A stretch of DNA of 64,000 bases from Cenococcum geophilum (GCA_050273025.1 CP158635.1:14632001-14696000), one strand, 5' to 3'; positions 8,005 to 60,023 are shown, counted from the stretch's first letter. The notes: generated from the letters alone by a model not told the origin. A program made the numbers and translations.

Positions 8005-8660
8005 ATGCCTAAAGCCTCTTCTTCTTCACACGCGCAACGTCGTGCTCGTACTATTGCTGCAATTTTGTCGCTTAGTGAAATAATACTATCTCCGTGTTCT
8101 TGTTGCTTAAAAGAGGGGTTGGTCTATATTGCGTTAGTAAGTTCTTTATCTTGGCAACCCTTCTTTTATTTAGAGTGTACTAAAGCAAACGTTTAATTAT
8201 TCTGCGATATTTGTTCTACTTTTAACGCTAAGTATACGCGTTTTATAACTCTTAATAGCCTCTAAGTTCCCTAAGTAATTTATTATAGGGTCTCGTATTT
8301 AATCTGCTACTACGAAGCTTAATAGCAACCTAGCGTAGGCTTTTATTAAGCTTAAGTGTTCTTAGGATGCGGAATAGAAGGCCCTGGATGCTTATATTGC
8401 GGCGTTTACCTATCTACTTTGTCTTAAGAAAGTGCGTAAGAAGGTTTATTTAAAGGAGTAGAAACTTATAGAATAAGGTCTGTAGGAACTTAGTAATAAA
8501 AGAACGGATTCTCTTCTAATAGGGAAGGAAATAACTCTGCGTAGTTTAGCAGTCGCTCTTCCTAGGTCCCCTTTAGGTAACTTATTCTTTAGTATTTCTT
8601 CTTTATTAATATTGTATAACCTTTTCTCTTCTAATACTCCTATACCTTTTCTATAGCGTT
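8005..8660 (+). pseudogene. Antisense two-exon accessory gene of G1: Zn2Cys6-like motif plus coiled coil
   Basis: ATG at 8005, MPKASSSSHAQRRAR. Motif C-x2-C-x6-C-x13-C-x2-C-x8-C with 4 Cys intact and 2 as TAT. A 55-bp intron at 8234-8288 (donor ATACGC, inferred from GTACGC; acceptor TAG) restores a Trp codon and the frame into a helical exon 2 (A.LLRL.KVRKKV..KE.KL.E.GL.EL). Confidence 0.7.
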
Positions 8661-11600
8661 CTTTAGGTTTTCTAGTAGTTCCTAGGTAGTCTTATTGTAG
8701 CCTATCTACTTTACTTTATACTATATCTTATTATCTATATCCTTATAACTAACGATCTTTAAAACTTACTATTTATCTTTCTTTTGTCCTCTATATATGT
8801 CTGCCTTATAGACCGGTAGCTTAATATTTCTGTATACTGGCTTTAGCATTATAATATACTATATAGGGTAGATCTTTATCCTAGCTAGTAGGTTTAACTT
8901 AAATATAACTGATGAAATTTTCTGTATAATTTTGAAAGGTCCTAGTCTAACGTAGTCTAACTTCTTGCTTAGTCGTCGACTTTTAAAATTTTTGTATAGT
9001 AGCTATACTTTATCTCCCTCCTTAAGATCTAGTCCCTTAGATCTCCTAGTATCGTAGTACTTTTTTATTCTTTACTGTACCACTTTAGCTATTTCCGTAA
9101 GGTCTATATAAAGATTTATTAAACTCTTTATTCTTTACTTAGCTGTGCTATTTATCTTTTTTACTTAATGTAGCGATAATAAGGTTCTTGGCTTATACCC
9201 GTAATTCGCCTTAAATAGTGACGTACCCATTTCTTCTTATAGTGTTATATTGTATGTAAACTGTATAACTAGTAATAGCGATACCTAATTATTCTGTGCG
9301 TGATTAACGTAATGTCTTAGATACTATTTTAGTGTCTAATTTAATCTTTTTATTTAACTGTTTGTCTGTAGATAATACGCGGTAGAAGTTACTACTTGAA
9401 CTCCTTGCTTTGCTAAGAATATTTCCTAAAATACTGCTACGAATCTTAGATCTTTGTCTAATATAATCTTACTTAGTGCTCTATGTTTTACAAATACTTC
9501 TTTTATATAGATTTTAGCGATATCTTCCGCTAATATTTCTTCCGTGTATGCTATAAAGTATTCCCACTTTATAAGCTTGTCTACTATTACTAGAATTACA
9601 TTATAATCTTATCCGGTAATAGGGTTTTTTGACTTTAGTAACTTAATAATAAAGTCCTATAATATAACCTCCTATAGTCTCTCTAGTATTTTAATAGGTT
9701 GTAGCTCTCTATATGGCTTATACCTTATTAGTTTATTTCTTTAGTAATTTAAATATTCTTTTGTAACTTGCCTAGCTAGTCCCTAAATTCTATTAATAAT
9801 ATACTCTTCCTAAAGTCTTAATACTAAGCCTATAGCTCTGTTATGTCCTTAAGTTAGTCCTTTATAAAATGACTTAATAAACTCTTTTGCAATAGTTCTT
9901 GGTACGTATATTGCTTTTTAATTTTCGTACTACTCTAAGTCTAGATCCTCTATTTGTATATTTAAGATCTTTTGTTTCTAATTACTTTTTAGTAATTTAT
10001 AGATCTTTTCTTTTTATAGTACTATAATCTTTAGATGATTGTATTTAATTAGTCTATCTATATCTTTCCGCAATAAAGCCCCTAATGGCTTTTTATTATT
10101 TTATAGTTTAGCCTTTCTACTTAGAGCGTCTGCTTGTATATTCTCTGTACCTTTAGTATACTAAATCTCGAAATAGTATTCTGTAAGTATCTCTGCCCAT
10201 CTAACTTATCTATAATTAAGTTCTTTCGTTATTAGGAACCCTATTAGGTTCTTATAATCTGTCTTAACTATAAATGGTTTTTCTATACCTTGTAAGAATA
10301 ATCTTTATTCCTTTAGTGCTATAACTATACCTAATAACTCCTTATTATATATATTATAGTTTAGTTCTAGTAGTATTATCTTTTAACTGTAGTATGCTAC
10401 TAGGTGCTATCCATCTTAATATTTCTATAGGAAGTACGCTCCTAGTATATAGTCTAATGCATCCGTTTTAACTACTGTCTCTAACTATAGTTAATAGATT
10501 TTAAGAACTAGTTCCTAGGTAAATAACTATTTAATCTTCTTAAACAGTTTCTTTTATTCCTTTCCCTATACCTATAGTTTTTCCTTCTTTATTAATTTTA
10601 TAAGTAGCTTAATATCCTTTAACTATTAAGCTATAAACCTTCTGCAGTAATTACAGAACCCTAGAAATAACCTTAATTACGTTATATTTTCTAGTTCTTG
10701 CTAATTTACTATAGCCTTAATCTTTTTTAGATCTATACTAAGTTGGCCTGGTTTAATAATAAATCTAACAAAATTGGTTTTTCTAGTGAAGAACTTGCAT
10801 TTTTTAATTGCTACTAGCATCTATTCTTCTTATAGTCTCTTTAAAACCTATTTAACGTGTTCTCTATATTCTTTCTTACTTATTAAGTAGATAATAATAT
10901 TATTAAGGTATACTATAATAAATTTATCCAAATACTCTCTTAATATATTATTAATTCGTTTCTAAAACGTTGCCGGTATATTTATAAGCCTAAATTGTAT
11001 AACTAATGGTTTATATAGTCCTTCCTTTAACCTAAAGGCTGCCTTCTATTTATTGCCTTTCTTAATTTTAATCTAATAGTACGCCCATCTTAGATCTATC
11101 TTTGTGAAGATTTGCGCATTACCGATTCTGTCTTAGATTTCGCTAATTAAGGGTAAAGGATACCTATCCTTTCTAGTAATGCTGTTTAACTATCTATAGT
11201 TAATATATAGCCTAAGTTTTCTATTCTTTTTTGGTATAAATAGTACTAGATATCCTGCTAATAACTGTAATAGTCTAATATATCCCTTTTAAAGATTTTC
11301 CTAGATAAACTCCTTAAGTACTTATGACTCTTTTTCTATTAACTTATAAGTTGGGTAGAACCTTAGACTTGTTCCTAGTTCTAACTCTATCTTATAGTCC
11401 TATACTATATAATCTAATAGCTTTTTACTTTCTAGTAACTATAACTTTTTACTATACTTATAGTATCTTTTTAGTATATAGCTTAATCCTTAATTAGTTT
11501 CTTTATATATCACTCTAACTTAGTACCATACTAACTTAGTTTATTATCGCATCTTATGTCATTATATATTTTTAATATTAACCTAACTTATAACCTAATT

Positions 11601-14600
11601 AATCTTTAGATTATATTCCTATAACTAAGGTATTCCTAATACTGCCTTATTATTTCCTAATGGTAATATATCAAAAGATATCTTAATTTATCTCCCTTTA
11701 ATAGTTATCTAAATTAGTCCTGTTTTAAGATTAATAATGCCTCCTCCATAGGCTATCAGATCTCCTAAGATTATTACTAATAGGTAAGGGTGCTTTTTCT
11801 ACCTATGTAGTATTCCTATCCTTTTAACTGCTGCTAGTAAGATATAGTTTCTTATTGCTCTACTATCTACTAATATTTTAAACTGTTAATCTTGCCATTT
11901 AACTCTTAGGTTTAGGTGTTGTCCTTAAATTTCTTTAAGGGTTTAAGGCTTTACTACTAGCTCCCTCTGGTTTTGTAGGCCTCTACTTTTCCTAACTGTT
12001 AGCTGCTTAATCCTATTATACTTAGCTTATTCTTTAGCCAATACCTAGTTTGTTTTTTGTCTTTAATATACTATAGATAGGTATTTTCTAAACATTTCTA
12101 CTATTGTTATTTATCTAAGCATTCTTCCATAAGGAATCTTTTTGGTTAAAGTATTAAGTCTTCTTCCTCTTAGACTTCTGCTGGATGCTAGCTATATATA
12201 TACTTGGCATTCCTGTACTGTTGTTTATCTATTATTTAGTATATCTTTGTAGGGTATTTTTAATTTTTTTCTTTTAGATTCTTGTATATTTTGTATATTT
12301 TATCTATATATGCAATCCATGATAGCGTATAGTGTGCTGGGTGCTTTAGGTTAACTCTTAGCTTGTTTTTGTCTCTGAGTTTAAACCTTTATCGTGCTAA
12401 TTTGAATATTATGACTTTATTTATAGGTACTAAGACGCGTTTTTTGCTTCTCTAGTCCTCTAATTGTTCCTCTAGATCCTTTAATGTTATAATTAATGCT
12501 TCCTTAATATGGTTTATTACTTTTTCCGTAATTAGGTGGTTTTAGATAACTTTTTTGTTTAACTATATATAGAAATCTTCCTACTTATTATTATGTCGCT
12601 GTCTATACTACTTTTAGTATAGCTGCTGAAGTGTATACGGCTTGTTTATAAGGAAGTATTTTCTTATTACTGCGTCGTAATAGCCCTTTATGTGTCGTTC
12701 TTTAAACCTAGTAGGAATCTCTAGATCCTCTTCTTGTTCTAGTTTGGTAAGCCACTTAGCTCTTAGTGTGCCTATTCTCGGCCTATTAGTGATTCTTTAT
12801 ATAGGTGCCCTGTCCCTTATACGTCCTAATATACTAGATCTCTTATCTAGTTTCTTTTCTTACTATAAGGTAATTCTCGCTCTAAACTCCTCTATAGTTT
12901 CTCTTTTTTTATATCTTATAAGTGGATCCTTAAAGTCTTCTTACTTCTTAATCTTGGTATTAAACTTTTAATCTTTAGTTTAAACATCTTGTTTAACTAG
13001 TAAGTCTTCTAGGTCTATATATCTGTCTTTTAGTCTAACTGCTATTTATATTGTAGATTCTCTAATCTATAAAGAAGCTCCTTACCTCTTGCTTATAGGT
13101 GTCTTAATTTATACTCTAAATTCTTAATCCCTTAGATTCTTTAATCCTAAGCTTGCCTCTATTTTAAGCTTAGCTCTAGCCTTAGTCTAACTAGGCTTTA
13201 CTAGTGTCCTTATCTTGTCTTAAGAGTCCTAGATCTTACTTATCTTATCTTAAAAGTCTTATGCTGTTGGGAACACTTGTCCTAAGCTTATTTATATATT
13301 TTTAAACTGAGCCGCTGCTCTACTTTATTAGTTATTGTCTGTTATAGGTCTCTAAGCATACCTTATCTTGTTTTGAGAATCTTAGTTATCTCTTATCTTA
13401 TCTTAAGAATCTTAAGCCTTTAGCCTTTTACCTTTATTAAGTGGTGAGCTAGTACTAGCAGTTATCTGCTTGCTTAATTGTCTCTAGATATTGCTCCTTT
13501 TATTTTATAAAGCGATAGATGCCGTATCTAACGGTATTATAATGCCTGTTACTGAACCTTGCTCTATAGCGGTCTTAGTTTCTACTTCTATTGCGTTATT
13601 AAGGTTTAGATACCCCTAGTTAGTTCCTTTACTATCCTTGTCGCTATTAATTAATAAGTACTCCGACTCTATTATTATTGTTACTAATCTTTATCTATAT
13701 ATTGCTGTAATATCTTAATCTAGCTTATAGAGTCGATCTTATTCTTTATCTAACTCTTTAGTTCTTTTAAGTCCCCTTAACTCTGGCTCTTATAGCTAAT
13801 AGCTTATACTATACTTAGCGTCTTTATAAATTTGGTATATGTTGTTATAATAAAACGCAAAACTTTTAATTGAATATTCTTTTGTTCCCCGTAGTACACT
13901 ATTATCCCTTTATACGTATATGTTATATACTATTAGTCTAGTTCCCTTTACTACGTAGTGGCCCTAACTACTTTTATAGTCTCTAGCGAAATAACCCTGT
14001 TTCCCGCAATTTATATAAGCTCCGTCTTTAAACTATTGTTTTTGCTATAGAGTTCGCTTAAACGTCTTCTGCTGCTAAGATCCTTAGTTTAGCCTATGCT
14101 TTTTAGTCCTATAATTACTTAATCCTTAACCTCTAGGTTTCTATAGTTTCTTACTCTATCTTTTATGGGTTTCTTTAGTACTACTTAGGTCTATTGGCTC
14201 TGCGCCGTACTATGATTTCTAATTTAGCTTTGGTTGTTACGTGCTCTGCGTCTTATATAACTATAGGACTTTATCCTAACCCCTCTTAGCTTGTTCCCTT
14301 TAGAAGATCCTATTATTAATCTTAATCGCTTAATCTATTAATTCCCTTAGGGTGTCCGCATCTTCTATTAGAATGATTGTGTTCTGGACTTTAGCCTTAA
14401 GTCCTTGTTTATACTGTGCTATAAGCGCCTTATTGTTCCATTTGACTTATATTATAAGTGTTTAAAACTGCGTTGTGTACTTGATTGCTGAAGTTTACTA
14501 TATTAGGTTCTAAAGCTTTCTCTCTGCTGTAGTTGTTGCTTTTAGGTCCCTAAATATCTGTGTTAATTGTTCCGTGAATCCTACCTAGCTAGAAAATATA

Positions 14601-15022
14601 AATCGTATCTTTTAATTAGTAGTAGTTATTCCGTTAGTCTGTATTTCTGTTAAGTAGGGTTTAAACTATTTAAGTGCCCGACCCGATAGGAATAGTCCTA
14701 TGTAGGCTATCTGGTCTATTATTATGGCTAACTTAGCCCCTTCTTATATGACTTTGAAATGCATTTGTGTTAGAAATCCTTTGAGCTTTAATTTTTCTCC
14801 TAAGAATCGTTTAATTAAAGGTAACTTAACCTTTGCTGCTCTGATCCCGTTAAGTCTATTCTTAAGTGTTGTATTATTTTCTGTTAATCGATCTACTATT
14901 TTTTATAATTGTCCTACTGTTATAGGTTGCTGCGAGTTAGTGTCCGCTATACTGGTGTCACCCCCTGACTTTAAAGTAGTTGCCGCTGTTGATGGCGTCG
15001 TGGTGGCTGCTTTTGGTAGTAT
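8620..15022 (-). pseudogene. G1 gag-pol polyprotein, RIP-inactivated
   Basis: Gag KVKLP.I.RF.GEK.KLKGFLTQM (~14760-14835); CCHC knuckle (~13985-14020); protease ILVDSRAIRNYI (~11845-11880); RT YLNNIIIY, read as YLDD (~10890-10912); chromodomain (~8640-8780). Confidence 0.9.
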
Positions 15023-15062
15023 GTTATTTGACTTATTGAAACCGTAACTGTGGTAGTGATTG

Positions 15063-15483
15063 TATAATGGAGCCTTGTAGTAGGGACTATAGTAAACTTG
15101 TTATTGGGCTAGGTATATAGGTATTATAAGTAAGTTAATAACGTAATAATAACTGGTGGAGTGGTTGCCTAATAGATGAACTCTAATTGTATTCTAAGAA
15201 TTACTATAAAGAAGGAACTATCTAGGTAGGGACTAAGGGTCCTTAAATACATAACTGTACTCCTATGAAATCCTCCTTATACGTAATGTACGTATTATAT
15301 ATAAGGTACGTAAGTTCCCTTCGTTCCTCGTGTCCCTTACGTAGCACCTTATGTGACCTCGGCTACTATTCCTTGTTATATAGTTCTACGGGTTCTATCC
15401 TAGACCGTGCTTATATTAACCAACTAGCTTCTTCTAACTCTTCTCTAAGTAGTCGTAATATTGTACTTAAGGCGTCCGTAACA
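15063..15483 (-). repeat. G1 5' LTR
   Basis: Direct repeat of 7476-7896; ends CCGTAACA. Confidence 0.95.
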
Positions 15484-16006: not shown

Positions 16007-16762
16007 CTAGCTATTATTATATATCTCTAGTAGTTTAGATATAAAGAAAAGAATTAGAATTAGAAATAGGTGTAATCCCTATATAATACCTATAGGTATT
16101 AGTATTAATTTGCTTTTATAGCCCTTAATTATAATTTTTATAGTACACCCTATTAGAAAGGCTTAGATAAACTTAATTATCTAGTTTAATAGGCCTTTAT
16201 TTCTTAGGATTTATAGAAGTCTCTTATATAATATATTATTAAATATTCCGCTTAGGTTTAGGCTTAGTATAGATATAATATATCCTAGGTAAGCTTACTA
16301 TACCGCTTAGATACTAAAGGTAATTAAGAAGAGGGCTAAAAGGGTTAATCTTTTCTTTCTTAAGCCTATTTATATCTACGGTAGTAGCTTTTATACTTCT
16401 GCCGCTTCTTATATACGTTTTATAACTATCTTTTTTAAGAGCCTTTTTAGGGTTAGTAGTTTTCTAAAATAGAGTAGTCTTTTTTTATACCTTTTATAAG
16501 ACGACTATAGTTATTACTTTAAAGTATTTAGGTAGTTTGCCTCTCTAAAGGTAGGTAGTTACGACGTTAGCGAATAGTATTACTACCGCTTTTACTATAG
16601 CTTTAATTGCCTTATTTAGCCTTAACGCTTTACTAGTAGGGAGCTTTTATATAGTGTCCTTTATTTCTTTTACTAATATTATATAACTTATATTAATAGG
16701 TAAGGGGTAGAATTAGCTACTAATATTCTATAGGTCTGTTTAGCCCGCGCCTAAAAAGAACC

Positions 16763-17235
16763 TGTCTGTACGAGTAGAGGGTATAAATAGTGTTATTAGA
16801 TAAATGGCGTAGAGCGTATGCGGTAGGGCCGCATGGCGTATGCGGTAGGGGCCGTATGGCGTAGCGTAGGTCACCTAACTACCTACGGCCCAATAGATAG
16901 CCCGACCTTTACTACCCCTTTCTTTCTCTTTTAGTAGACAAGATAGAACACAAATAAACCAAGAACTAGAACTAATTGCAATTGCAGTATCCGGGTGATA
17001 CCAACACTAATCAGTGTTAGTATCACCCGGATACTACAATTGCAATTAGTTCTAGTTCTTGGTTTATTTGTGTTCTATCTTGTCTACTAAAAGAGAAAGA
17101 AAGGGGTAGTAAAGGTCGGGCTATCTATTGGGCCGTAGGTAGTTAGGTGACCTACGCTACGCCATACGGCCCTACCGTATACGCTCTGCGCCATTTATCT
17201 AATAACACTATTTATACCCTCTACTCGTATAGACA
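16763..17235. mobile_element. 473-bp spacerless palindromic (fold-back) insertion with TG..CA ends
   Basis: Starts TGTCTGTACGAGTAGAGGG and ends CCCTCTACTCGTATAGACA. The arms (248 and 225 bp) meet at 17010/17011. 5-bp TSD GAACC at 16758-16762 and 17236-17240. Confidence 0.92.
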
Positions 17236-19075: not shown

Positions 19076-19200
19076 TGTCTATATAAGTTCGCACGAGAAT
19101 TTATAGACGTAATTACGTAAGCTAAGCGAGCTCAGGAAACCCCTTAAATTCCTCCTATTTATATATAATTAAAAGAAAAAGTCACCACTATTTAAAAGAG

Positions 19201-25200: not shown

Positions 25201-25329
25201 AGGGGTTACTAGGACTAATATAAACAAATATATAGGGTGAGCCGCTAAGGCGCTAGCTTTGGGCGGGCCAATCGCAGGTCGGCAGAATATGGCAGAATTT
25301 GGCAGGTAACGTGCAATAGCGCCGTTACA
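19201..25329 (-). mobile_element. Ty3/gypsy chromovirus G2 copy a (6.1 kb)
   Basis: 211-bp LTRs at 19201-19411 and 25119-25329; TSD AAGAG; minus-strand PPT at 19412-19425; near-identical to 50214-56393. Confidence 0.95.
19740..24888 (-). pseudogene. G2a gag-pol, RIP-inactivated
   Basis: ATG at 24888 (MAPK); protease ALINTRANSFAFIN, read as ALIDTGA (~23565-23605); RT YLDDILIYSD (~22190-22218); chromodomain (~19870-19990). Confidence 0.9.
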
Positions 25330-25632
25330 AAGAGTATACGATACTATACGTATTTCGTGCCCCTGGATATAACTTACTTATTATAAGGGGATCTTGTAGA
25401 CAGGGGGCTATAAGGACACGATTGGAATAAGATAGATTAGTGAGAGAGACAAATCCATAAGGAGGTAAGGCCTCTGGGATCGTGGAGACTATATACTATA
25501 GGCACGTGCCTCCGGCACGTGACCGGCGACTATCTGAGGGGCGTCTGGGGGTTGTCCTGAGGGCAACCCGAGGTGTCCGCAATAATATCCCTTACATTGC
25601 CCCCCCCCTTCTTACGGTTGGCCCCCGATCGC

Positions 25633-42520: not shown

Positions 42521-43446
42521 GCTTTAGCAGGTTAATATTTAATATTCCTTGGCGTTTTACTTATTTATTAACTTAACTAAGACTAGGGTAGAGCTCTAAT
42601 TAATATTTAGGTGTTAAGTGTCGATCTCTATATGCGTATTTAAATAGTCCATTAGATTCTTATCTAGAGAGATATTAAAGTTTATACTAAAAGCTCCTAA
42701 AACCCATAGAACCTATATTATATTAGCTATTTAGTTTAAGTGTCTTATAATCCTCTTAACTAGATATTATCCGTTTTTCTTAGGCTACTATACCTTAAGC
42801 CTTTTAGCCAATATTAGATTTACCTTATAGTAAGAGAAAACAAAAGGATATATCTGCGCACTCTAAAAGTAAGAAATCCGCTTACTAAGTAAACCTAATA
42901 TCTACTTATAACCCCTCTCTAGCACCTTAATTAAGTAGTAATTCTATATTAATGTTACTTTATAAGTTAACTAGACGGCGCCCACTTACTTTAATTAGTA
43001 GTAACTTAACTATAAAGGATTTACGCGTTACAAATAAGCGTATATAAGGTGGTTAATTTTTACTAAGGTAAGTTATAGCGGCGATTATTTATTAGTAAGC
43101 TAATTTAATAAAATTAGCAGCGCGGATATTTACCTTTAATTAACCTCTGTACTTCTTCTTTTATTAACTATTAGGTAAAACCTAAGTAGATAGTTATATA
43201 GGTGTAAGGTATGGGCGACCCTAGGGCGACCTAGGGGTGACTCGCCTGTAAGGCACGTGCTTTACATATGCCTAGGGAAAACCCTTCCTACCTTATATAT
43301 AGACTCCTCCTTTTTCCCTTAAGGATTTGTCTCTGTCTATACAATATACCTATTATTCTATTATTGGACTCCTTATCCACATCCTTACCTTATATTTAAA
43401 TCCTTACCAATCCCCTTAGGAGGATAGCCGGTTTAATTTTTCTATA

Positions 43447-46400: not shown

Positions 46401-49145
46401 GCATATCGCAACCTAATGTTAGATAGGGAGAAGAAGAAGAGATATAAGTTAAAAGGGCCTACTAAATGGTATTAACCTTAGTCCTAGCCTGATAACGCGT
46501 AGTAGGTATTCTATAAGCTATGCGCTACGTTTATATAGGCTCCTCTACTTTGCTACTTTAACCCTAATTTACCCCTAATAGTAATTACTAACGCTTCTAA
46601 CTATACCTATAGCGGTATACTTCTGTAGCCTTTAGGGTAAAAAGATTAACTCTACTAGCACCTAATCACTTATTATAGTTAGAAGCTTACTAGCCTAGAA
46701 GTATAGTATAATACGTATAATAAAGAACTACTCGCTATAGTGTAATGCTTTAAGACGTAGCGCTATTACCTTAAATACGCCGCGTATATAACACGCGTGC
46801 TCTACAATTATAATAATCTTAGGTACTTTATAACCACTAAGAGCTTATCTGCTCGCTAGGCCTAATACGCTAAGGAACTAGCTAAGTTTAATTTTAAGAT
46901 TAAATATAAGCTAGGTAAAGCAAATCCTGCTAATATACTATCCTAGCGCCTAGATTATGCTAAAGGCTTTAAAAATAGTAGTAAGAGGATACTCCTTAAT
47001 ATTATACTGCCTATATTGTAGTAAAAGTTACGGGTTATAGGCCTTATGGGCGGCCCTAGTGCTACTATATTATACTAGCGAGTAGTATACGTGTAGTATA
47101 CGAGCGACCCTTATAAACTTAGCGCTAGCGGACTAGAGCGTCTTACCATTCTTTTTAAGACTACTTCGACTGGCCTAATGGCGCTTAACCCTAAGGAAGT
47201 GTAAGCTTTGCAGTGTGTGGGAATTAAACGAGCGACTTAATTGTAAATCTATGGAAATTAAGTGGTATATATATATAAAGAAGGCATAGGAAATAAGGGG
47301 TAATTAACCAAGTCAGTGGCCGAGTCGGTGAGCGAGTTAAGGTGTATATGGTGATACGAGACAAGACAAGGTAGTGTTTTGGCAGGGTACTGTAGTCGGT
47401 TACAGGAAGACCCCTTAGCCCAGGCTATGGTCCCCCGTAATAACCTAGCGAGTTACCTACGTATTATATGTTACTTCGCTAGCACCGACTTTATACAGAG
47501 TCTTGTGCCATGGTAAAAGGTAGTAGTAGCTACTTTAGCCAAAACGGCGTTTATGGAACACCCCCCTAAGTTACTAGTTAATTTTATTTATAGAGTATAA
47601 AAAAGGGACGCCTTTATACGCTTTATATATAATCAGTTAACCTAAAAATGAGTTCCTGCCGGTAATAAGGACTATACCCTTAATAATTAAGGACTTTTAA
47701 GGTAAAATAATAAGGTCTAGGTGCCGAATTGCATACTATTATAATAGGAGATCCTTAAGTGGAATTATAACAATCCTATAGGCGGCCACTATGGTTTTAA
47801 CTATACCTTTAAGGTAATTGCGCGAAAGTATACTTAGAACGGCCTTACCTAGGACCTCCGTAAATACCTAGATAATTGTAATACCTACTAACGCTCTAAA
47901 TCGCGCCGCTATAAACCCTATAGTAAGCTGTAGCCTCTCTAGGCCCCTACCCAAGCCTAGTAGTATTATTTACTTAACTTTATTATGGATTTCCTAAAGT
48001 CTAAAACTCCTAATAGCATAGAGTATAACTCCGTTCTTATCCTTATAGACCGTTTTATAAAGCTAATACGCTACTATCTAATGCGTAAGATAATTAATGC
48101 TACGCAACTCGCAGAACTTTTATTTAGAGTCTTTACGTAAATAGGGCCTCTAAATAATATTATCTTTAATAGGGGTAGTATATTTACAAGCGAGTACTAA
48201 AGCACTATATACTACTATCTCCGCGTTTAATATAAACTTAGTACCGCATTTTACCCGCAAATAGATAGTTAGACAAAGCATTAGAACTAGGAGCTTAAGG
48301 TATACCTATATATATTTACGAACTAGAAACAGTTTAATTAGGCCTCCCTACTTAAAGAAGTAGCCTTTACCTATAACTCTAAGGTCCATACTATAATAAA
48401 GCGTTCCCTTATTAAGCTCGCCTATAGCTAGCTACTAAATATCCCGGACAAAGTCCTAGACGGCGTTTAAGACGCCTAGTAAGGTAGGGAAGAGTTTAAG
48501 TTAACAAATGTTAAACTAGTAAAGACGTATCTATAATGCCTGCGCATTATATATAAGGCAGCGGCGGCGTTAATAATGCACGCCTAATAGCTTTAGGTAA
48601 AATACTATAATCGTCACTATCTAGCCAAGCATTTCGCCGTTAGTAAACGAGTCCTACTCTCCTTTAAGAATATCCGCACAAAACGTCCCTATAAAAAGCT
48701 TAACTATAAGTTTATAGAACCGTTTTAGATCCTAGAGCGCGTAAGGCAGCAAGTATATAAGCTAGAGCTTCCACCCGCTATAGCATAGCTCTATCTAGTC
48801 TTCTATATCTCCCTACTAGAGCCTTATAGGTCACGCCCTAGGTTTTAACCCCTAGCAGTAAAAGAGCTTAAGGAAGGCAGCTGGGAAGTAAAAGTAATTA
48901 TCGCCTACTAGGATTGTGCTAGATAACCATAGTACCTTATTAAATAGCTAGGATGGCTAAATAAGTATAATAAATAGAAATACAAGATAGAACTTAAGAA
49001 TTATTAATAACTATTAGATAAGTACCGTAAGCGGAACACCCTAGCCTTATAGCCGAAGCGCAGGCGAAAAGTAAGCGCTGCTGTTAAAATATAACCTATA
49101 TTAAAGTAGAGTAAAGGACGTCCTAAGGGATTAAAGAATAAGTAA
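43447..49145 (+). pseudogene. G4 gag-pol, RIP-inactivated
   Basis: Start IPLKRKPTPVP, read as MPPKRK; protease (~44750-44790); RT VYLDNILIY (~46071-46098); integrase core NRGSIFTSEY (~48168-48197); chromodomain WEVKVII...YLIK*LGW (~48882-49030). Confidence 0.9.
47200..47404. repeat. 205-bp solo LTR of a further family, inserted in G4 pol
   Basis: TGTAA...TTACA ends; TSD GGAAG at 47195-47199 and 47405-47409. Confidence 0.88.
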
Positions 49146-50213
49146 CAATTACTATAAGAACTGCGGCGTATATATAGGGTAAAGTTTTAATTTATTAATA
49201 TCCTATATAAGCCACACTCTAATGTAACCTGGCGATGCTAGTAACTTATAGGTAAGGCTACGGCATATACCGGCAATAAAGCTTAATTTAGAAAGCACCC
49301 TTCTTAGACCTAATCCGTTACTCTATATTAGCTAAGCAGATTACTTATATATTAGAAAATAGGCCCGTTTATAACTAGGGTCTATTTAACCGGGGTCTAT
49401 AACTTACTAGTAACCCACTAGTAGTAACCTATACTAATAACTTATACTATTCTATATATATACTATACAGATAACGCGTAAGGCTAAAGTATAGGTTAGT
49501 AGCGGATTTAACAGGTATATAGCCTTGCCGTCCTAAACCTAGCTATATATAAGTAACCTATAACCTACCTATAAAGTATATACGGCGCTATACCGGTATA
49601 GCATAAGGCTAAAGCAGGGTTAGTAGCGGGTTTAATAGGTATATAGCCTTACCGTCTATAAATCTAGCTGTATATAAATAACCTATAACTAACCCGCGAG
49701 GTACTAGCGACCTACCTACGTAAATAAGCTTTTAGAATATTTCTAGTCTACTAAATTTAGGTAACGGTATTAAGCTCTACTAGCTCTACCTATTAAATAG
49801 ACTAATTAGGATTTTCTATACCGGGTATATAAAATCGCTACTAGCTCGGTTAAATATAGGGGAGTTTTAGTAAGGTAAATCTGACTAATTAGACAACTTT
49901 AACCGCCGGTTAAAGTTTCTTAACATCTTCGCGCCGCGCATATGTACCACCTATCTCTCTATACGCAAAATTAAGACGCTCTTTCCCCTCCAAATTTTTT
50001 CCTTACTAGGGTTTTTTATAGGGTTTTATTAAGGCTTAAGTATATAAAGGATTAGGGACGACCCTTTTTAAAGGGGGAGGGCATTATTAGGTAAAACCTA
50101 AGTAGATAGTTATATAGGTATAAGGTATAGGGCAACCTAGGGAAAACCCTTCCTACCTCGCACACAGACTCCTCCTTTTTCCCTTAAGGATTTATCTCTG
50201 TCTATATAATATA

Positions 50214-53200
50214 TGTCACGGCTTAAATAAATACCTCTAAACCAAAGCTTGAACGAATGCTATATTACAAAGATACTAAGCTAAAGAGAAGGAAAAGGGG
50301 TCGCTAGGACCGATGTAAACAAATATATAGGGTGAGCCGCCAAGGCGCTAGCTTTAGGCGGGCTAATCGCAGGTCGGCAGAATATGGCAGAATTTGGCAG
50401 GTAATATGCGATAGCGCCGTTATATCACCCCCCTCTTTAAAAGAAAGCCTGCCCTTAGGCTTAGTTAGAAAAAATAGGGTAGTACTAAGCTTATAAATAT
50501 AGGATTATAAAAATATAAGATAAGGAGATAAAGGGGATATAAGTCTATCCTAACTAAGTATAAAGGGCGATTATAGGCTAAGTAGAAGCACTAGGCTAGA
50601 AAGAGTAGCCGCTAAAAGTCTTGGCACAGATCTAACTAATTAGATAACTTCAACTGGTGGTTAAAGTTCCTGGATATCTGAAATTTTATAGTACTGGTAG
50701 AAAACGGTAAAATATGGCAGAATTTAGCAGACAGCTATATTAGGGCTTTAGGGCGTTTTTGTCCCTATATTCTTCCGGTAACTTATTATCTTTATTATAC
50801 TAGCATTCCATCCATTTATCTAGGTACTTTAGGGGTCTAGGCGTATTAGGGTATTAGTTATAGAATTTTTTAAGCTTCTAGGAGCAGCCTATAAAGTTCT
50901 ATATAGGGTACTAGGTTAGGTTAGAATTATAGCCCTTCCATTAAATACGGTATTTTAGCGCTCCCCGTACTATCTTATAGGCCAGTATTTTATTAACCTT
51001 CTATTCGTTATTACCGTTTACTTAAACTAGTAGGGGAGGCTTATTCTTTTGTCTAGGTAATAGGTCGTTTACAGCTTTCTATAACTTATCTAGCGAGAAG
51101 ATAGGGTGAACCCTAATTAAGTCTAGGAGCTTTATCTTATACAAGTTGCCTATCTTTTTAAGAACCTTATACGGTCCTACTATTTAATAGTCCAGCTTAT
51201 AGCTAGGTCGTTTAGTCCTCTAATTTCTTATTATAACCTAGACTATATCGCTAGGGGCAAAATTAGGCTCTTAACGGTGTTTATTCGCCTACTATTTTAT
51301 TAACCTTTAAGCTTTTTCTAGGTTCTTACGGGCTACCATCTAGGCCTCCTCTAATTATTTGGCGTACTGTTAGGCCTTAGTATAGAATAGCTTCTCTTAT
51401 ATAGTCTAGAGTTCTTCTAGCCTTTTCCAGTTAAAGCTTATACGGGGTAAGTATCCTATTTCTAGCTAAATTGGGGCAAACCCTATAGAGTTATAGGGTA
51501 GAGTTGCTTGCGCGTAGTCTATTAAGGGTAGTAGTTTAGACTAGTTATCCTGGAAATAGTTAATAAAGGGCCTAAGCCTTTAGTCTAGGTACTAATTTAT
51601 AATCTCTATCTAACCGTCTATCTAGGGGTAATAAGCCGTAGAAAGCTTTAGCTTAATACCTAGGATCCGGGTAAACTTATTTTAGAAGGCTAATATAAAC
51701 TATAGCCTATAATTGGATATAATAGTATCTAGTAGTTTATAGATTTAGTAGACGTAATAGATATATAGCCAGGCTACCTCTTTAGCATTAATGTTCTTAT
51801 AACATGGAATTAAAAACGGGCGTTTACTAAAGCGGTTAACTATAACTATAACCATATCGTATCTGTTACGGTCCCTAGGTAGTTTATAGAAGTCTATAAA
51901 GATATACTACTAAGGGCGCTCTAGTATTAGGAGTGGCTTAAGTAGTTCTGGGGTCTTATCCCGTGGGATTATAGCTCTCTAGTAGTCTTCGCAGTTCTAT
52001 ATATATTAATTAATATCCGCAACTATTCTTAGCTAGTAGTAGCGGCAGTTAATAATTTTACAGGTCTTATTCTTGCTAGGGTGTGCTGTAAAGACTTGGT
52101 AATAAGCTTTATAGATTAGTTCGGTTTATAGATTATTAATATTAGGGACTATAAGCCGCTTCTAGTATAGGAGCAATCCTTCCTCTATCTTAAAATTGGG
52201 GTCTTCTTTTACGGCTTATTCGCGGAGGGCCCTTAGGGCGTTAGCCGTGCGGTTTATAGTTAGGAGGTAGTTAATTAGCCCTATTAGCTCTTCTAAGGAC
52301 TCCTCTATTAGTACTAGCTCGTTTTGCTAGGAGTCTAGCTCCTTAAGGATCCGTAGGTTAAGCTATTCTAGATAGAGGAGGGCGCGCATCTAATATTAGG
52401 TCTTTAGCTTATCTTAGGGTCCTACGTCTTATTCTCTTTGGGTTAGGGTATTAGCCTTAGAGTTTTACTTACCAGAACGATATATAATTGTAAAAAAGAA
52501 TTAGGAGAGTATTTTGGCCTACTAGGCTTATTACCCTATAAGCTGCTTTATAGTTATAAAGTACTCTAGGGCTTTATAATCTATATATATTTTAATCCGG
52601 AAGTTCGTACCTTTAAGCTCTACGCGCTATTAGGAGAGTAATTAAATAATAGCTAGCATTTCTTTATTATGTACTTTATAGTTATACTTAGCTAGGTCTA
52701 TTATCTTTAAGAAGAAAGCTATAGGGTACCATTCGCCGTCTGGATATAATTGTAATAGGATTCCCGCTATAACCCTATTAGAGGCGTCTATTTCTAGCAT
52801 TAATTTAAGGTTTAGGTTATAGTAATAAAGGATTAGGGAAGAGATAAGCCAATTCTTTACCTCTTTAAAGGCCTCTATATAGCTATTATTAAAGATAAAA
52901 GGCGTATCCTTCCTAGTTAGTTGTATAAGAGGTTTTGCTATAATTCCGTAGTTACGGATAAACTAGCGGTAGAAATTATAAAAACTAAGAAAGGACTGGA
53001 TTCCTTTTACTATATAAGGGGGCTTTTAGTTACGGATTGCTTTTACCTTCTTAGGGTTAACCTTAATTCCTTCTATAGTTATAATAAACCTAAGGTATTT
53101 TATACGTTTTACCCTAAACTTATATTTCTTAATATTAACTTATAAGCCCGCGTTCCGTAGCCTCTCTAGAACCTTCTTAATATAAACTTAATACTTAAGT

Positions 53201-56200
53201 TCGTTATCTAAGTATATAAGAATGTCGTCTAGGTATGCCATATAGAATTTGTTAAGGTAATTAAAAAGAACGTTATTTATATACCTTTGGTACGTAGTTA
53301 GTCCGTTTATTAGTTTAAAAAAAAGAACTTTATATTTATAGGAACTATAGCAGGTATAGAACGTTATTAAATCTTTAAATACAGGGTCTATTCTAATTTG
53401 GTAAAAAGCTTAGCGGATATTAAGTTTAGTAAAGATCTTTGCCTGGCTTAGACGTGTAAGGGTCTTATTTATTAAAGGAATAGGATACCGGTCCTTTTAA
53501 GTAATAGCGTTTAGCTTTTAATAGTTAATATAAAAACAAAGGCCTCTATTAGGCTTTTTTATAAATAGGATAGGGGAAGTAAAAGGGGCTTAACTTAGCT
53601 CGATAAACCCTTTATCTAGGTTATTAATTAAGTACTACTTTATTGCTTTTAGCTTATCCGTTAATTAATAGCAGAGGGGGCTATAGCCTAGCGAGTTATT
53701 GGCCTTTAATTAAATCTTATAATTGTATGTCTGGTAGGGGGGTAACTTATTTAAGGCCGCCTTTAAAAATGCATTCTTATAGCCTATATAAATGGTAGAA
53801 AGAAGGCGTTTAACTAGTTCCTTATCAGTTTCCTTATCTAGCCTTTCCTCTCTATTATTAATAATTTGGTTAATCTTATATAGGCTTATTATAAAGACCT
53901 CATTATCCTTCTAGTATATATTAAAGTGGAACGCTATAGCGCTAATTACGGCGATTTCTACGGTAGGGGGGTTAACTAATAATAGGGGCGTATATAACTT
54001 TAGGGACTTCTGGGGTACTAGCGTTATTATTACTTCTTTTAGTTTCTATTGCATCTTTCGGAGGTTATCCCTTATATCCTATTAATACGTTCTTTTCCAT
54101 AACGGTTAAATCTGTGCAATTTAGACGTTATTATCTGTCCCGCTTTTGTACGTAGAGTCCTCTTTAAACGTAGCGCTTTAGGAGAGTATCTTTATTAGTA
54201 TAGAATTCTTTCTAGCTTTACGGCGGGCGTTTTCTTAGGTAAAGGCTAGGTTACGGGCCCGGATATCCTGCTAGTAGGTAGGGTTACCCCTTACAGCTAG
54301 TGTCTTGTAGTTAGTTCGGATCTCCTTAATAAAGAAGGGCAACCTTAGTCTATCCTCTAGCTAAATAAACCGTCTTTTTTATACGTTTAACCAAATATTA
54401 AAATAGGACATCTATTTTCGTCTAAGGATTATATTATAGGACCCTAGGTCTAGGATGCAAAAGGGGATGCTATATTAGCGTTATCTGTTAAGAGTAATAT
54501 ATAACTTTAAGACGTGGGTAATAGGCCGACTAGCTTGGCCGTTATAGCCCTTTACCTAAACAGGCTTCTCTAGTTAGATAGCTTCTGTATTTAGAAACTT
54601 GGCAACATTATTTATATAGGTAGTATTTATAAAGGCGAAGCTATTTACTCCAGTATTAATAAGGGCGGTTGTATTAACTCTATATCTATTTTAAGATACT
54701 ATATATAGAACTATAAAATGCTTTCTACCTATTAACTAACTAAGATTAATCTCTTTGAGATTAATAGGGTACCCTAGGGGGGAGTTTTTCCCTAGGGTTC
54801 TTCTTTTCCCGACTTATCGGACGTTTCTCCTTCCTCTATCTTCTTAATATCGCCTATATCCTTTAGCTCCGGGCAGGATAAAGTAAAGTAACTTTACTTA
54901 TTATAGTTAAAGCATATAGCCGAGGCAGGGTTAATTAGAGTATTACAGCGAATATTAGTTAATAGCGTGGTACGTAGCTAGTTAGGTAAGGCTTGCTAGT
55001 GCGTAATTATAACCGCCTTTAGTATAAGAGCAGTCGTAATTTATCTTTCTGCTCTAGTTTCTATAGGTATAGCTAGCGAGTTCCGATTGTTATAGAGTCG
55101 CTTCTACTAATTAGGGTGGGTATTAATCCGCTTTAGTTCTAAGTCTAATAATAGGTAATAAGCTGCGAGTCTTTTATAGGTTAGTAGGTTATTTAAGGTT
55201 ATAGCGATCTTTTCTTATAGCCGGATTGTTAGCTTATTGTATAGGTCTAATTAGTAGTTCTTAAGGGGAACCTAGCCTTCTCCTATAAGGTATAGGAATT
55301 AAGTTTAGAATTTAGCAAAGGGTTAGTTTAGTTTTATTATTAGGTAATTATAGTTATAATAGGCATCCTATACTTTGTTTGGGTTAACATAGATAGCCGC
55401 TAGGTGCTATATTATCTTATTAATAGATATAAATTAGACAGGGGAGTCGTCCTTAAACTTGGCTTAAAGGTGCCGTTAGGCGTCCCTAGTGGTTTAACTA
55501 AAGAGGTAGAGTATTTTGGCTTCTTTAGAAAGGAAATAGTTATAGTTAATATAGAGCTTTCCTTGTACTTAAATCCTCTAATTCTTAAAGGTAGGGTTTA
55601 TCCTATTAAATAGTAGTAGGGGGTTAGGGAGCTTAACGGACTTTAATTGCTTTGTTATTATATCCGTACTCCCTAGTATATTATATTTAGTAGAGTAAAT
55701 AGGTTAGCTAGGGCTTTAAAAAGAGGAAGCTAGGCTATTTTATAGGGCTGTAAGGCTTTCTAGGATCTCTTATAGGGTCTCTTATATATTTCTCGCTTTA
55801 AGATAATTGGCTTTTTAGCTAGCTGCAAGGGCGCAAATCTACTCGCGTATGTCTATAATAATATTATTATCTTTAATTTCTGATCCTAATTGGATCTTAG
55901 GTTCCTCTTGGGTAGAGGTAGCTCTCTTAGATAAGCTTACTTTAGGTGCCATTATTAGCTTCCTAAGGTTCGTTAGTATTATACGCTTTAGTTTTAATTC
56001 TGGGGGTATAGGTCTAGTCTTGTCTAGCTTATAAGGTAGGATATTATCTAGGCCTTCCCAGGCAATATAAAGTTGTTTTAGTGTCTAAGTATAGCGCGTT
56101 AATACGTCGTTGCAGACAAAGTTTCTTTAGGGTGGGATATTATTAAGGCCTTTCCAGGCAAGGTAGGGAGAGCTTAGTATAATATCATGGCTTAAATAAA

Positions 56201-56393
56201 TGCCTCTAAACCAAAGCTTAAACGAATACTATATTACAAAGATACTAAGCTAAAGAGAAGGAAAAGGGGTCGCTAGGACCGATATAAACAAATATATAGG
56301 CTAAGCCGCTAAGGCGCTAGCTTTAGGCGGGCTAATCGCAGGTCGGCAGAATATGGCAGAATTTGGCAGGTAACGTGCGATAGCGCCGTTACA
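50214..56393 (-). mobile_element. Ty3/gypsy chromovirus G2 copy b (6.2 kb), inserted in the G4 3' LTR
   Basis: 211-bp LTRs at 50214-50424 and 56183-56393; TSD ATATA at 50209-50213 and 56394-56398; colinear with G2a. Confidence 0.95.
50760..55952 (-). pseudogene. G2b gag-pol, RIP-inactivated
   Basis: ATG at 55952; RT MAYLDDILIY (~53213-53242); same domains as G2a. Confidence 0.9.
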
Positions 56394-56527
56394 ATATACC
56401 TATTGTTCTATTATTGGACTTCCTATCTATATCTTTACCTTATATTAACCTTCTACCTTATAGTACCGTACCGTAAACTTTGTCGTTGTTATTTTATCTA
56501 CTATCTATTAGTATACTACTATCTATA

Positions 56528-58057
56528 ATGCCTTTATTTACACCTTTAAATATATCTAATAGCTATTTAGTTAAGGAACTTAATATACGTAATGTTAACA
56601 ATAAAATAATTAAGGACGCTTTTAAGGACGCACTTTTTTTTACTAATCCTTTAAATTTTTTACTTAGAGAGTAAGCTTTCTAATACTAAATTATGCCTAT
56701 AGTTAATATAATTTTAGGAAATATATACTAAAGCACTCTTTATTGGATATAGCAAAGCACTATAATAATACTATTGCAAAATCCGCTTGAAATCCGCTTA
56801 CCTTTTTACTACTTATCTCTTTACCGCCTACTTCTTTACTACTTGCCTCTTTGCTGCCTACTTTTAAGCCGCCTATTTCTTTATCGCCTGCTACTTCTAA
56901 AAAGTTTAATCCTTATTATGCTTTTGCTTCTCTTAAGAGGCAGGCTAATAAAATTGCTATGTAAAATATTTAGTATAAGATAGCCTTTAAATCGTATATA
57001 TTAGCTATACTTTTTTAATATCTTATCTACTAATTTACCTCTTATAGTAACCCAATAGAAATATTAGAGATTTTAGACGATAAAGAGAGTAATCTTAATA
57101 ATGCCAACTCTTCTAAAAGCCCTCCTCTATTCTCTTATAATCTCTACAGCCCTTATAAGCTCCGTAGTACATAAACGGCCTAAGCTATAATGTTAGATAT
57201 TAATATAAAAGAGCGCCTTCCTATTTAAGTGCTGTTAGTAAATAAATGGTATACCCTAAAAGCTAGTGCTTAGGAGAATATAAAGGAAGCTCACTAGCGG
57301 ATATATACCTATATCTAGAATATTAAGGGTAGCTTTAGTATGCCATATAATCCGCTATACGCTTTATGCGTTAAGTAAGACTATAAATATCGCGTTTATA
57401 AGCAGAATGCTAGGCTATATTTTAGAGGTGCATACTTAAGATATTGCTTAAGTAGTAGGTTGTGTAAAAAGGTATATACTAATAGTATACCACCATTCTA
57501 TTAGCTAATACGTATATAGGATAGTTTGCTAAGACTAGAGCTAGTTACACTTTAGCGTAAAATATATATGCAATTAGCTTCTACTAGTAGTCCGACTAGA
57601 ATACCTACTAAAAAGGTATAATATTTGCATCTTAATAATATAAATATTGCTAATATCCGTATAGCTTTATACCTGCACTATCCCCCCTCTAAAGACCTCC
57701 CCTCCCCCTAAGACTCCTACTTGTAGTAATATGCATAGCCGTAGAGGCACCCGTTCTGCCGCTACTCCTTTTACTCTTTTACTAATTCCTAGCACGCGTA
57801 GTGCTGCTTCTAGTACTACTACCGCTCCTACTAGCATAGAAAATGTTAGGGCGTATTTAGCAATTACTGTTTCCGTATATATTAATATAGTTTATAAACG
57901 GGTAACTAAAATAGCGAAAGATACTTGGGCTATAGATTGCCGGTTAAGTAAGCTTAAAGATTCTCTAAGTAAAATAAAGGATAAACTTGCGTTTATAAGG
58001 CGTGGCATTACTATACTTATATATAACGCTAGGTTGCCGGATATAGAATTTAAGTAG
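56528..58057 (+). pseudogene. Five-exon Zn2Cys6-like / coiled-coil accessory gene in the AcademH-like element, copy 1
   Basis: ATG at 56528. GT..CTAA-like branch..AG introns at 56671-56717, 56994-57047, 57472-57519 and 57616-57664. Motif C-x2-C-x6-C-x14-C-x2-C-x6-C at ~57358-57465. Helical C-terminus RLSKLKDSLSKIKDKLAF. Confidence 0.72.
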
Positions 58058-58448
58058 ATATAGGTTAGCTATTATTACGGGTTTAGAGTAATAAAATAGT
58101 AGCTCTTGTCTCTCTACTATTATATATATAGGAATTAAGTCTCTACCTTATATTTAATAGATATACTTAATTAATATTATAATATCCGTATAGGCTAGAA
58201 TAAGGATATCCACATAAGCTAAAATAGAGATATTTATATATCCGCACCGTTAATATTTACTAAGGTAAGTTACTATAGCAGCGATTATTTATTAGTAAGC
58301 TAATTTAATAAAATCGGCAGCGTGGATATTTACCTTAATTAACCTCCGTACCTTTTTTTCCTCTACTAACCTTCTACCTTATAGCACCATACCACGAACT
58401 TTATTATTATTGTTTTATATACTATCCCTTAGAATACTATAATCTATA

Positions 58449-60023
58449 ATGCCTTTATTTATACCTCTAAATAATATTAATATAAATAATAGCAACTAGG
58501 CGGTTAAGGAACTTAATATACGCGATGTTAACGATAAGAAGTTTAATGCTGTTAAGTACACTATAGCTACTCTTACTAAGCCTTTAGGCTCTATTCCTAA
58601 AAAATAAGCCTTTTAATACTAAATTATACCTATAGCTAATATGATTTTAGGAAATATATACTAAGGCGCTCTTTATAGGATTTAGTAGATAACGATAATA
58701 AGGATAGAGTAAAATCCGCTAAAAACCCGCTTACCTTTTTACTGGATACCTTTCTGCTGCCTATATCTTTGCCGTAGGCTACTTTACTATCCACTATTTT
58801 ACTATCCGCTTTTCTACTACCGCCGCCTAATACTTCTAAAAAGAGGCTTAATAAGGCTCGTTTGTCTTCTTTTCTTAGAAAGTAGGCTAAAAAGGCTGCT
58901 AATATGAATATAAAGCTTAAGATAGCTATTAAATTGTATATATTAGTTATACTATTTTAGTGTCTTATCTACTAATTTACCTTTTATAGTAACCCAAATA
59001 CTATATATAAGGTTTCTTTGGATAGTAAATCTTTAGATAGTAATAAAGATAAAGACCTTAATATCGCTAACTCTCGCAATCTCTGTAGCCCTTACAATCT
59101 CCGCAGCCCTTAAAATCTTAGTAGCCCTTATAATCTCCACAGTACTCCTAATACAAATAAGCGCCTTCCTATTTAAGTACCGTTAGCGAATAAATGGTAC
59201 ACTCTAAAAGCTAGTGTTTGGGATAATATAAAGGAAAGTCGCTAGCGGATATTAATACACATCTAGAATATTAAGGGTAGCTTTAGTAAACTGCGTAATC
59301 CGCTATACGCTCTATGCGAGAAGTATAGCTATAAATATTGCGTTTATAAGAAGGACTTTAGGCCACATTTTAGGGGTACGTGCTTAAGATATTGTGTAGG
59401 TAGTAGGTTATATAGAAAGGTACGTGCTAATAGTATACTATTATTTTATTAGCTAACACGCGTATAAGAAAGTTTACTAAATCCAGAGCTAGTTATACCT
59501 TAGGGTAGAAAACGTGCGCAATTAGCTTCTACTAATAGTCCGGCTAGAATACCTACTAAGAAGGTATGCTATCCGCATTTTAATAATATAGATATTGCTA
59601 ATATCCGCATAGCTTCGTTTTTTTATTATCCCCGCCTATACTACTACGCCTCCCCCTACTAAGACCTCCCCTCCTATTAAGACTCCTACTTATAGTAGTA
59701 TATACGGCTATAGGGGCACCCGCTCTACTGCTACTCCTCTAACCCTTTTACTAATTGCTAGCATACTAGGTGCTGCTATTGCTGCTACCGCTTTCGCTAG
59801 CGCTGGGTCTATTAGGGTATATTTAGTAATTATTATTTCTGCGCGTATTAATATAGTTTATAAACGGGTAACTAATATAGTAAAAGATATTTAAGCTATA
59901 GATCGCCAGTTTAATAAGTTTAAAGATTTTTTAAGTAAAATAAAGAATAAGCTTGCGTTCCTAAGGCGTAGTATTATTACACTTATATATAATGCTAGGC
60001 TACCAGATATTAAATATAAGTAA
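58449..60023 (+). pseudogene. Five-exon Zn2Cys6-like accessory gene, copy 2 (diverged tandem duplicate)
   Basis: Colinear with copy 1 and with the same intron positions; retains canonical donors GTACGT (~59420) and GTATGC (~59564) and an intact Cys4 codon. Confidence 0.72.

Follow-up and report, generated by a model that had tools for sequence, protein, structure and literature searches.

Paired six-Cys accessory genes in a helicase- and DUF6589-bearing DNA transposon of Cenococcum geophilum and a possibly related module in a Gypsy retrotransposon

VANC proteins are the anti-silencing proteins of the VANDAL transposons of Arabidopsis. One of the closest systems described in fungi is REP9 of Zymoseptoria tritici, a 7.9-kb IS3EU-like DNA transposon with an rve-type integrase and two DUF3716 genes, REP9-1 and REP9-2; overexpression of REP9-1 induced the other three REP9 genes (the sections on this element in PMC8232023). 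An extra antisense gene, brtn, is described in the passages on the Boty-like Ty3/Gypsy retrotransposons of Botrytis cinerea and Sclerotinia (PMC8365987, PMC7264820), and AcademH elements are characterized as fungal DNA transposons with a helicase and a DDE-type transposase, in passages that do not mention Cys-cluster accessory genes (PMC10045372, PMC10799480). Here we analyze 64,000 nucleotides of one strand from Cenococcum geophilum (GCA_050273025.1, CP158635.1:14632001-14696000; this whole stretch is ‘the window’ in what follows) that contain a copy of a multi-copy DNA transposon of more than 12 kb; the transposon holds two six-Cys genes, designated a and b in the window and A and B in intact relatives. 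Like REP9, as those sections present it, this transposon has two paralogous Cys-rich accessory genes next to its transposase gene. A preliminary description of the window had proposed that three unrelated transposons each carry an intron-containing, Zn2Cys6-like accessory gene; six-Cys genes are found in two unrelated elements, the DNA transposon and the Ty3/Gypsy retrotransposon G1, and the third, in the retrotransposon G3, could not be reproduced.

The window is a nest of fungal transposable elements mutated by repeat-induced point mutation (RIP), with a G+C content of 31–47%, a TpA/ApT ratio of 1.74 and only six stop-free frames of at least 120 codons. Our approach for finding six-Cys candidates in such DNA allows either Cys or Tyr at each of the six positions of the consensus and covers all six frames of the window, in which 7.4% of the codons are read as Tyr and 1.4% as Cys. 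The search yields eight matches, whereas first-order Markov simulations average 1.57 and do not exceed 6; genes a and b account for two of the eight. Five-exon models were built from splice signals that are common to both copies, and their limits are those already given by the preliminary description. Gene a (56528-58057, plus strand) is a RIP-killed A-type copy with exons at 56528-56670, 56718-56993, 57048-57471, 57520-57615 and 57665-58057, GT..AG introns of 47, 54, 48 and 49 nt, and 11 in-frame stops; gene b (58449-60023, plus strand) is its RIP-killed B-type paralogue, with exons at 58449-58603, 58651-58935, 58990-59419, 59468-59563 and 59613-60023 and 10 in-frame stops. The two genes lie in a repeat pair (56434-58209 and 58356-60192) that is 75% alike. 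All eight exonic indels that distinguish a from b are multiples of three (12, 6, 3, 21, 6, 9, 21 and 3), and those in the flanks measure 21, 17, 1, 1 and 17. The introns contain no indels between a and b, and their transversion rate (0.039) is below that of the exons (0.080–0.101).

The six-Cys cluster of gene a (57358-57465, plus strand) reads Y C Y Y Y C (codons TAC TGC TAT TAC TAT TGT, compared with TGY at all six positions in the intact copy described below) and that of gene b (59306-59413, plus strand) reads Y C Y C Y Y. In both genes an intron opens two codons past the last Cys, close behind the cluster as had been predicted. A Pfam scan of the plus frames of 56401-60300 gave zero matches, and a word-indexed protein search with the RIP-mutated copy b found none either, which does not demonstrate absence.

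A profile of copies a and b was then searched against 1.84 billion representative proteins; it identified 32 relatives, every one a short open reading frame fragment from a metagenome. In the least mutated of these, P0004, each of the six predicted positions is Cys (a word-indexed search for longer proteins with P0004 gave no match, again without demonstrating absence). A scan of metagenome contigs recovered five loci; in each of the three long contigs, L001, L002 and L003, an A-type gene is followed by a B-type gene. L001 (12,044 bp) is free of RIP (GC 47%, TpA/ApT 0.97), and when the gene model is moved onto it both spliced frames are open, encoding 444 amino acids for A and 448 for B; all eight introns have GT..AG ends and are 47–54 nt long (one donor site was placed by RNA evidence). 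Both proteins have the spacing C-x2-C-x6-C-x14-C-x2-C-x6-C, with Cys at exactly the positions at which Tyr had been predicted to replace it in the window. Across 16 related sequences the six positions are occupied only by Cys (TGY) or Tyr (TAY), and in the un-mutated sequences, that is, A and B of L001 and P0004, all six are Cys; thus, the reversal of RIP from Tyr to Cys on which the preliminary description depended was correct.

Contigs assembled from four metatranscriptome runs show that the predicted introns are used. Five of the eight are spliced out at the predicted bases with GT..AG ends: introns 2 (L001 5398-5451, in three runs), 3 (5879-5926) and 4 (6023-6071) of A, and introns 1 (7041-7087) and 4 (7980-8028) of B. 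Joints in the RNA contigs that lack GT..AG ends (e.g., 7026 to 7171 and 5059 to 5206) were treated as copy differences. For the A and B pair of L001 the overall ratio of nonsynonymous to synonymous substitution rates (dN/dS) is 0.62, with values of 0.87 in the N-terminal part, 0.34 in the helix and Cys module, and 0.29 in the coiled coil, as expected if the last two regions are under purifying selection. The proteins share a layout of disordered N-terminus, conserved helix, six-Cys module, Ser/Thr/Pro-rich linker of about 100 residues, and C-terminal coiled coil. The coiled coil, which the preliminary description had placed at the end of these genes, has six heptads in which all 12 a/d positions are hydrophobic; none of 1000 shuffles attained that score. 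In gene a the coiled coil corresponds approximately to 57891-58016 on the plus strand (residues 387–428 of intact A, converted with the exon model). Prediction of the A and B coiled-coil complex gave scores of 0.07 and 0.10, where the mark is 0.34; these values are informative in neither direction. Genes a and b are real genes that RIP has killed in the window.

The linkage of the gene pair to the element, which was also proposed at the outset, is constant: the window and the three long contigs agree in where they carry the pair, and in the contigs the gene order helicase, A, B, DUF6589 is colinear; the window matches this order piecewise. The left part of the window copy (38813-43168, plus strand) holds 51-bp repeats and the RIP-degraded region of a RecQ-like helicase gene and is colinear with L001 5-4853 and L003 6020-9391; the right part (56447-60897, plus strand) contains genes a and b and the 3′ part of the DUF6589 gene and is colinear with L001 4852-9684 and L003 9357-13870. 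Taken together, L001 is colinear with 38876-43152 and 56448-60890 of the window, and L003 with 39834-43154 and 56425-60896. A nest of two retrotransposons, G4 and G2, splits the window copy 80 bp upstream of the ATG of gene a, and an inverted G4-type long terminal repeat (LTR) truncates it at 60897. Past the common 3′ sequence the copies of the element diverge, at about 12003 in L001 and at about 16223 and 17012 in L003.

The helicase and DUF6589 genes were named by Pfam in L001 only. The open reading frame at L001 403-3972 (1190 codons) matches DEAD (E 1.8e-13) and Helicase_C (E 1.7e-9), as in superfamily 2 helicases, and is RecQ-like (E 1.5e-20). The DUF6589 gene (L001 9046-10953, minus strand) is a 635-codon frame with a Pfam E-value of 1e-72; in the window it would lie at about 60580-60897 on the minus strand, a position taken from colinearity only. 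In the heavily mutated window copy, Pfam gave no match in any of the six frames of 37001-43200 or of 60001-64000. At least 110 relatives of DUF6589 were found, and those with a name belong almost exclusively to Ascomycota. In a structural model made from 41 relatives (predicted local distance difference test score, pLDDT, 84), a helical domain is inserted into an RNase H-like fold, as in the DDE transposases that the model matches, namely, Hermes (Z 11.8, root-mean-square deviation 7.1, 301 residues aligned), the P element transposase (Z 10.1) and RAG1 (Z about 7); Foldseek alone gave no match for the model at E ≤ 0.001, with Hermes at E 0.014. The model makes it likely that Pfam DUF6589, which is listed as of unknown function, is a DDE transposase; with helicase and DDE transposase together, the name ‘AcademH-like’ used in the preliminary description is reasonable.

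Two further features of the contigs concern the element. In L001, 93 bases (8416-8508) with CT..AC ends are skipped by RNA contigs of all four runs, which extend past 8700; the ends are those of a GT..AG intron on the minus strand, so the DUF6589 transcript appears to be spliced too. In L003, a piece of about 0.8 kb (16231-17022) directly behind the full element combines the element's 5′ region (like window 38813-39222) with a second copy of its 3′ region that is 86% like L003 15835-16215; this piece may be an internally deleted, non-autonomous derivative.

An 8-base word, ATATCCGC, is strewn over the transposon. It occurs 39 times in L001, against an expectation of 0.58, and none of 200 shuffles contains more than 5; the word has a density of about 3 per kb and is about 70 times commoner than by chance. 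It is found on both strands and in exons, introns and spacers, its complement, GCGGATAT, contains CGG, and inverted pairs are located close to both contig ends. Arrays of 24 bp lie behind each of A and B and an array of 21 bp lies in the helicase frame; with a following A, that is, as ATATCCGC(A), the word forms arrays of 12, 21 and 24 bp between the genes. Intron 4 of both A and B holds two copies (L001:6023-6071 and 7980-8028; window 57616-57664 and 59564-59612). The word follows the element: all 17 occurrences in L003 are inside it, with none in the approximately 9.4 kb of other DNA in that contig, and 11 of the 15 occurrences in the window fall within the element's 10.6 kb. This distribution suggests ATATCCGC as a candidate binding site that would be read by A and B.

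The second carrier is G1 (7476-15481, minus strand), whose LTRs (7476-7894 and 15063-15481) are 93% alike and which contains RVT_1, RT_RNaseH and SH3_Tf2-1 domains. The element map that includes it is based on self-comparison of the window and on Pfam scans with stops read as X; both G1 and G3 have an LTR pair and reverse transcriptase, RNase H and integrase in the order of Gypsy elements, so both are assigned to Ty3/Gypsy. The G1 gene relic (8005-8660, plus strand, antisense to the element) begins with the ATG at 8005, lies between the end of pol and the 3′ LTR (inside 7895-8690), and has its Cys cluster at 8095-8205; nine codons past the last Cys, 8232-8288 is a candidate GT..AG intron of 57 nt. 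Its antisense orientation implies that an intron would be retained through reverse transcription. The cluster reads C C Y Y C C in the window and Y C C C C C in a second copy (L003:1813-2040, minus strand); across both copies Cys is present at all six positions, giving C-x2-C-x6-C-x13-C-x2-C-x8-C. The merged G1 peptide aligns in register with the module of B (0 of 2000 shuffles reach the score) and with that of A (14 of 2000), which suggests that the G1 module is related to the A/B module. A tblastn search of the window with A and B gave no significant match in the tails of G1 or G3 (best E about 5–8), and a Pfam search with both mutated copies of the G1 gene gave no match. Like genes a and b, the G1 gene in the window is dead through RIP. 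L003:1-6019 holds two partial copies of G1, 73–79% like that of the window, one of them inserted in the DNA transposon; with G1 copies and the DNA transposon in one contig, L003 can be attributed to a close relative of the organism of the window.

The gene attributed to G3 (25384-36970, minus strand) is most probably a chance reading of Tyr-rich, RIP-mutated, non-coding DNA. At 27738-28850 neither strand contains a match with Cys or Tyr at all six positions, even with relaxed spacings, and only scattered half-sites occur; where a start codon was supposed the sequence reads ATA, Pfam gives no match, and we detect no similarity to A or B or to the de-RIPped G1 peptides. Tyr codons exceed Cys codons in the window, as noted above, and about 1.6 full matches per window are expected at random. 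Set against this reading are the unusually long stretch of 3.4 kb that separates pol from the 3′ LTR in G3 and the lack of a second G3 copy for the reversal of RIP. A GC-rich 20-bp array at 30.5–30.9 kb breaks into the integrase region of G3 and recurs in its tail.

We propose, with a probability of roughly 0.6, that A and B (and the G1 protein) are dimeric, zinc-dependent, sequence-specific DNA binders that recognize their own element. A and B would dimerize via the coiled coil and bind zinc through the six Cys; they would recognize ATATCCGC(A), the CGG-containing word strewn over the whole DNA transposon; and binding would switch on the element's genes, open chromatin, or recruit transposition proteins.

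Several results weigh against this proposal, and most concern what the six-Cys module is. The Zn_clus family (PF00172) has the spacing C-x2-C-x6-C-x5-12-C-x2-C-x6-8-C, and its GAL4-type members have basic residues between Cys2 and Cys3. The outer spacings of A, B and the G1 protein fit this pattern, and the central loop (x14 in A and B, x13 in G1) exceeds its usual range but falls inside the x5-16 allowed in the preliminary description; the segment between Cys2 and Cys3 (VKQDYE and EKHGHE) is non-basic. The Zn_clus scores of B (19.5 bits), A (18.2) and P0004 (18.2) do not reach the cut-off of 21, and the match covers only profile positions 17–36 of 39, with the first Cys triad placed on the second half of the profile. 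The scores with DUF3716 (PF12511), 16.0 bits for B, 14.9 for A and 15.9 for P0004, do not reach the cut-off of 22 either; that match spans nearly the whole profile (positions 7–52 of 59). A profile search of the PDB returned GAL4 only, insignificantly (E 2.3–2.5) and with the two halves in swapped order, and the AlphaFold model of the Cys domain (from three sequences; pLDDT 49) is unusable. Beyond the module, no annotated fungal protein is among the 32 relatives, the transversions between a and b (0.082, 0.080 and 0.101 by codon position) are hardly enriched at third positions, A and B are tied to ATATCCGC by co-occurrence alone, so that the transposase or the helicase is a possible reader, and the G3 claim fails altogether. 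The G1 evidence is drawn from two RIP-damaged copies: the predicted Cys cluster on the plus strand of the window and the intron candidate behind it stand, and the coiled coil and the downstream exons are unconfirmed: 300 of 1000 shuffles reached the heptad score of the helix-like frame, the intron candidate did not lead into that frame, and the exon structure failed to close.

In the ESM Atlas, the top named clusters for the module are DUF3716 clusters from Ascomycota (0.92, 0.89 and 0.88), and 22 of 30 matches belong to that set; such neighbors count as leads rather than as alignments. When DUF3716 is excluded, no Zn_clus cluster appears among the remaining matches. With both Pfam cut-offs missed and DUF3716 clusters as neighbors, we call the module DUF3716-like: its sequence points to a six-Cys module of zinc-cluster spacing that stands outside the Zn_clus family, and we have abandoned the family name ‘Zn2Cys6’ of the preliminary description (18.2–19.5 bits, half of the profile).

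An alternative that we consider unlikely is that A and B are transposition co-factors, that is, that they bind the motif arrays and the ends and thereby bring the DDE transposase and the RecQ-like helicase together or direct them, a role that accessory DNA-binding subunits play in other transposons. In every long copy their genes have the helicase gene on one side and the transposase gene on the other, inverted motif pairs are located near both contig ends, and some copies of the motif fall within coding exons, where a promoter element would hardly be expected. However, overexpression of REP9-1 raised the transcription of the genes of its element (PMC8232023), and a related module is present in G1, a Gypsy element with a wholly different route of transposition.

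Less likely still, the six-Cys module could bind protein or RNA, or could be a structural zinc knot, in which case ATATCCGC would have another reader or none; the failure to reach any family cut-off, the non-basic segment between Cys2 and Cys3 and the low confidence of the Cys-domain model are what one would then expect. Set against this are the two CX2CX6C halves, which are those of GAL4 and each align weakly to a GAL4 half, and the succession of module, linker and coiled coil, which is the architecture of a dimeric DNA binder.

That A and B are captured host passengers with no role for the elements is very improbable: they are multi-intron genes of ordinary fungal look, and gene capture has been suggested for helicase-bearing transposons (in a passage of PMC10799480), but the window and the three long contigs all have them at one site of the element, the un-mutated copy retains both paralogues intact and under purifying selection, a related module occurs in the unrelated retrotransposon G1 and, by the sections cited, in an IS3EU-type element (PMC8232023), profile and word-indexed protein searches found no stand-alone host homologue, and the element's own motif occurs twice in intron 4 of each gene.

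The remainder of the window consists of further elements and repeats. G2 is a 6.1-kb LTR element that self-comparison locates in two copies (19188-25330 and 50202-56394); no six-Cys pattern was found between these two copies after reversal of RIP. G4, a Gypsy element (43169-56446, plus strand), is a nested insertion with a truncated 5′ LTR, pol and a 3′ LTR (49348-50213 and 56390-56446) that is interrupted by the second copy of G2; a degenerate, inverted copy of G4 extends from 60898 onwards and includes arrays with a 94-bp period. Minisatellite-like tandem arrays are located at 25950-26430, 30526-30877, 37813-38649, 41800-42500 and 62782-63416. Another repeat family (about 73–74% alike; 37000-37770, 1-292 and 6841-7435) borders G1 and, on its left side, the DNA transposon. 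TGA-free frames were considered as a tracer of former coding frames and rejected; RIP has removed TGA throughout the window, so such frames are no guide to what was once coding.

How, then, does this transposon compare with the systems described at the outset? In gene content it is like AcademH, as characterized in the passages cited, in combining a DEAD/Helicase_C helicase with a DDE-type transposase in a fungal DNA transposon (PMC10045372, PMC10799480); the likeness is one of gene content, AcademH being further characterized by terminal inverted repeats and 9–10 bp target duplications. The G1 gene resembles brtn, as presented in the sources on Boty-like elements, in that both are extra genes read against gag-pol and located between pol and the 3′ LTR (PMC8365987, PMC7264820); this likeness is one of position and orientation.

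The nearest family of A and B, both in Pfam and in the language model, is DUF3716, the family of the REP9 accessory genes, and the self-activation described for REP9-1, which induces its element's genes, is the behavior that we propose for A and B. The two systems differ in their machinery, an rve-type integrase in 7.9 kb for REP9 compared with a RecQ-like helicase and DUF6589 in more than 12 kb here, and in the size of the proteins, 193 amino acids for REP9-1 compared with 444 and 448 with a long coiled coil for A and B (REP9 values from the sections cited of PMC8232023). Also, the REP9 genes carry DUF3716 whereas A and B fall below its cut-off; the two are likened by description. With REP9 as precedent, genes of this kind are already known, and the idea of an element-encoded regulator is less new than the preliminary description held. 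What is new is a helicase-bearing DDE transposon as a third carrier of such genes, the in-register likeness of their module to that of a Gypsy antisense gene, the RNA-supported introns, the dense candidate word and the fold predicted for DUF6589. Reading Tyr as Cys in RIP-mutated DNA can also recover real, if predicted, zinc modules.

Members of the GAL4-type Zn(II)2Cys6 family are fungal proteins that, like A and B, have two CX2CX6C halves with a dimerizing coiled coil behind them. CGG is the half-site of GAL4-type zinc cluster factors, and the complement of the candidate word contains it. Unlike in GAL4, however, the first half of the A/B cluster resembles the second half of GAL4 and vice versa, the central loop (here and in G1) has 13–14 residues, and the cluster is located in the middle of the protein, about 100 residues ahead of the coiled coil; A and B also stay below the Zn_clus cut-off on half of the profile, with no Zn_clus among their language-model neighbors.

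VANC belongs to an unrelated protein family in another kingdom, so its likeness to A and B is one of working principle: an accessory protein encoded by the element and short motifs repeated across that same element as its presumed target. Transposon accessory genes are rarely understood, and two paralogous six-Cys coiled-coil proteins together with an 8-base word offer a testable pair. By analogy, the REP9 genes, the antisense gene of Boty-like elements and the genes of the helicase-bearing transposon might be tied to one protein module. It is conceivable, if doubtful, that a single DUF3716-type family of dimeric six-Cys DNA binders serves as a portable self-recognition module of LTR retrotransposons (in which its genes would be antisense and retain their introns), IS3EU-like and helicase-bearing DDE elements, each version reading a word present in dozens of copies in its own element and, by coating that element, activating it or protecting it against silencing; if this were true, the module would be the fungal counterpart of plant VANC.

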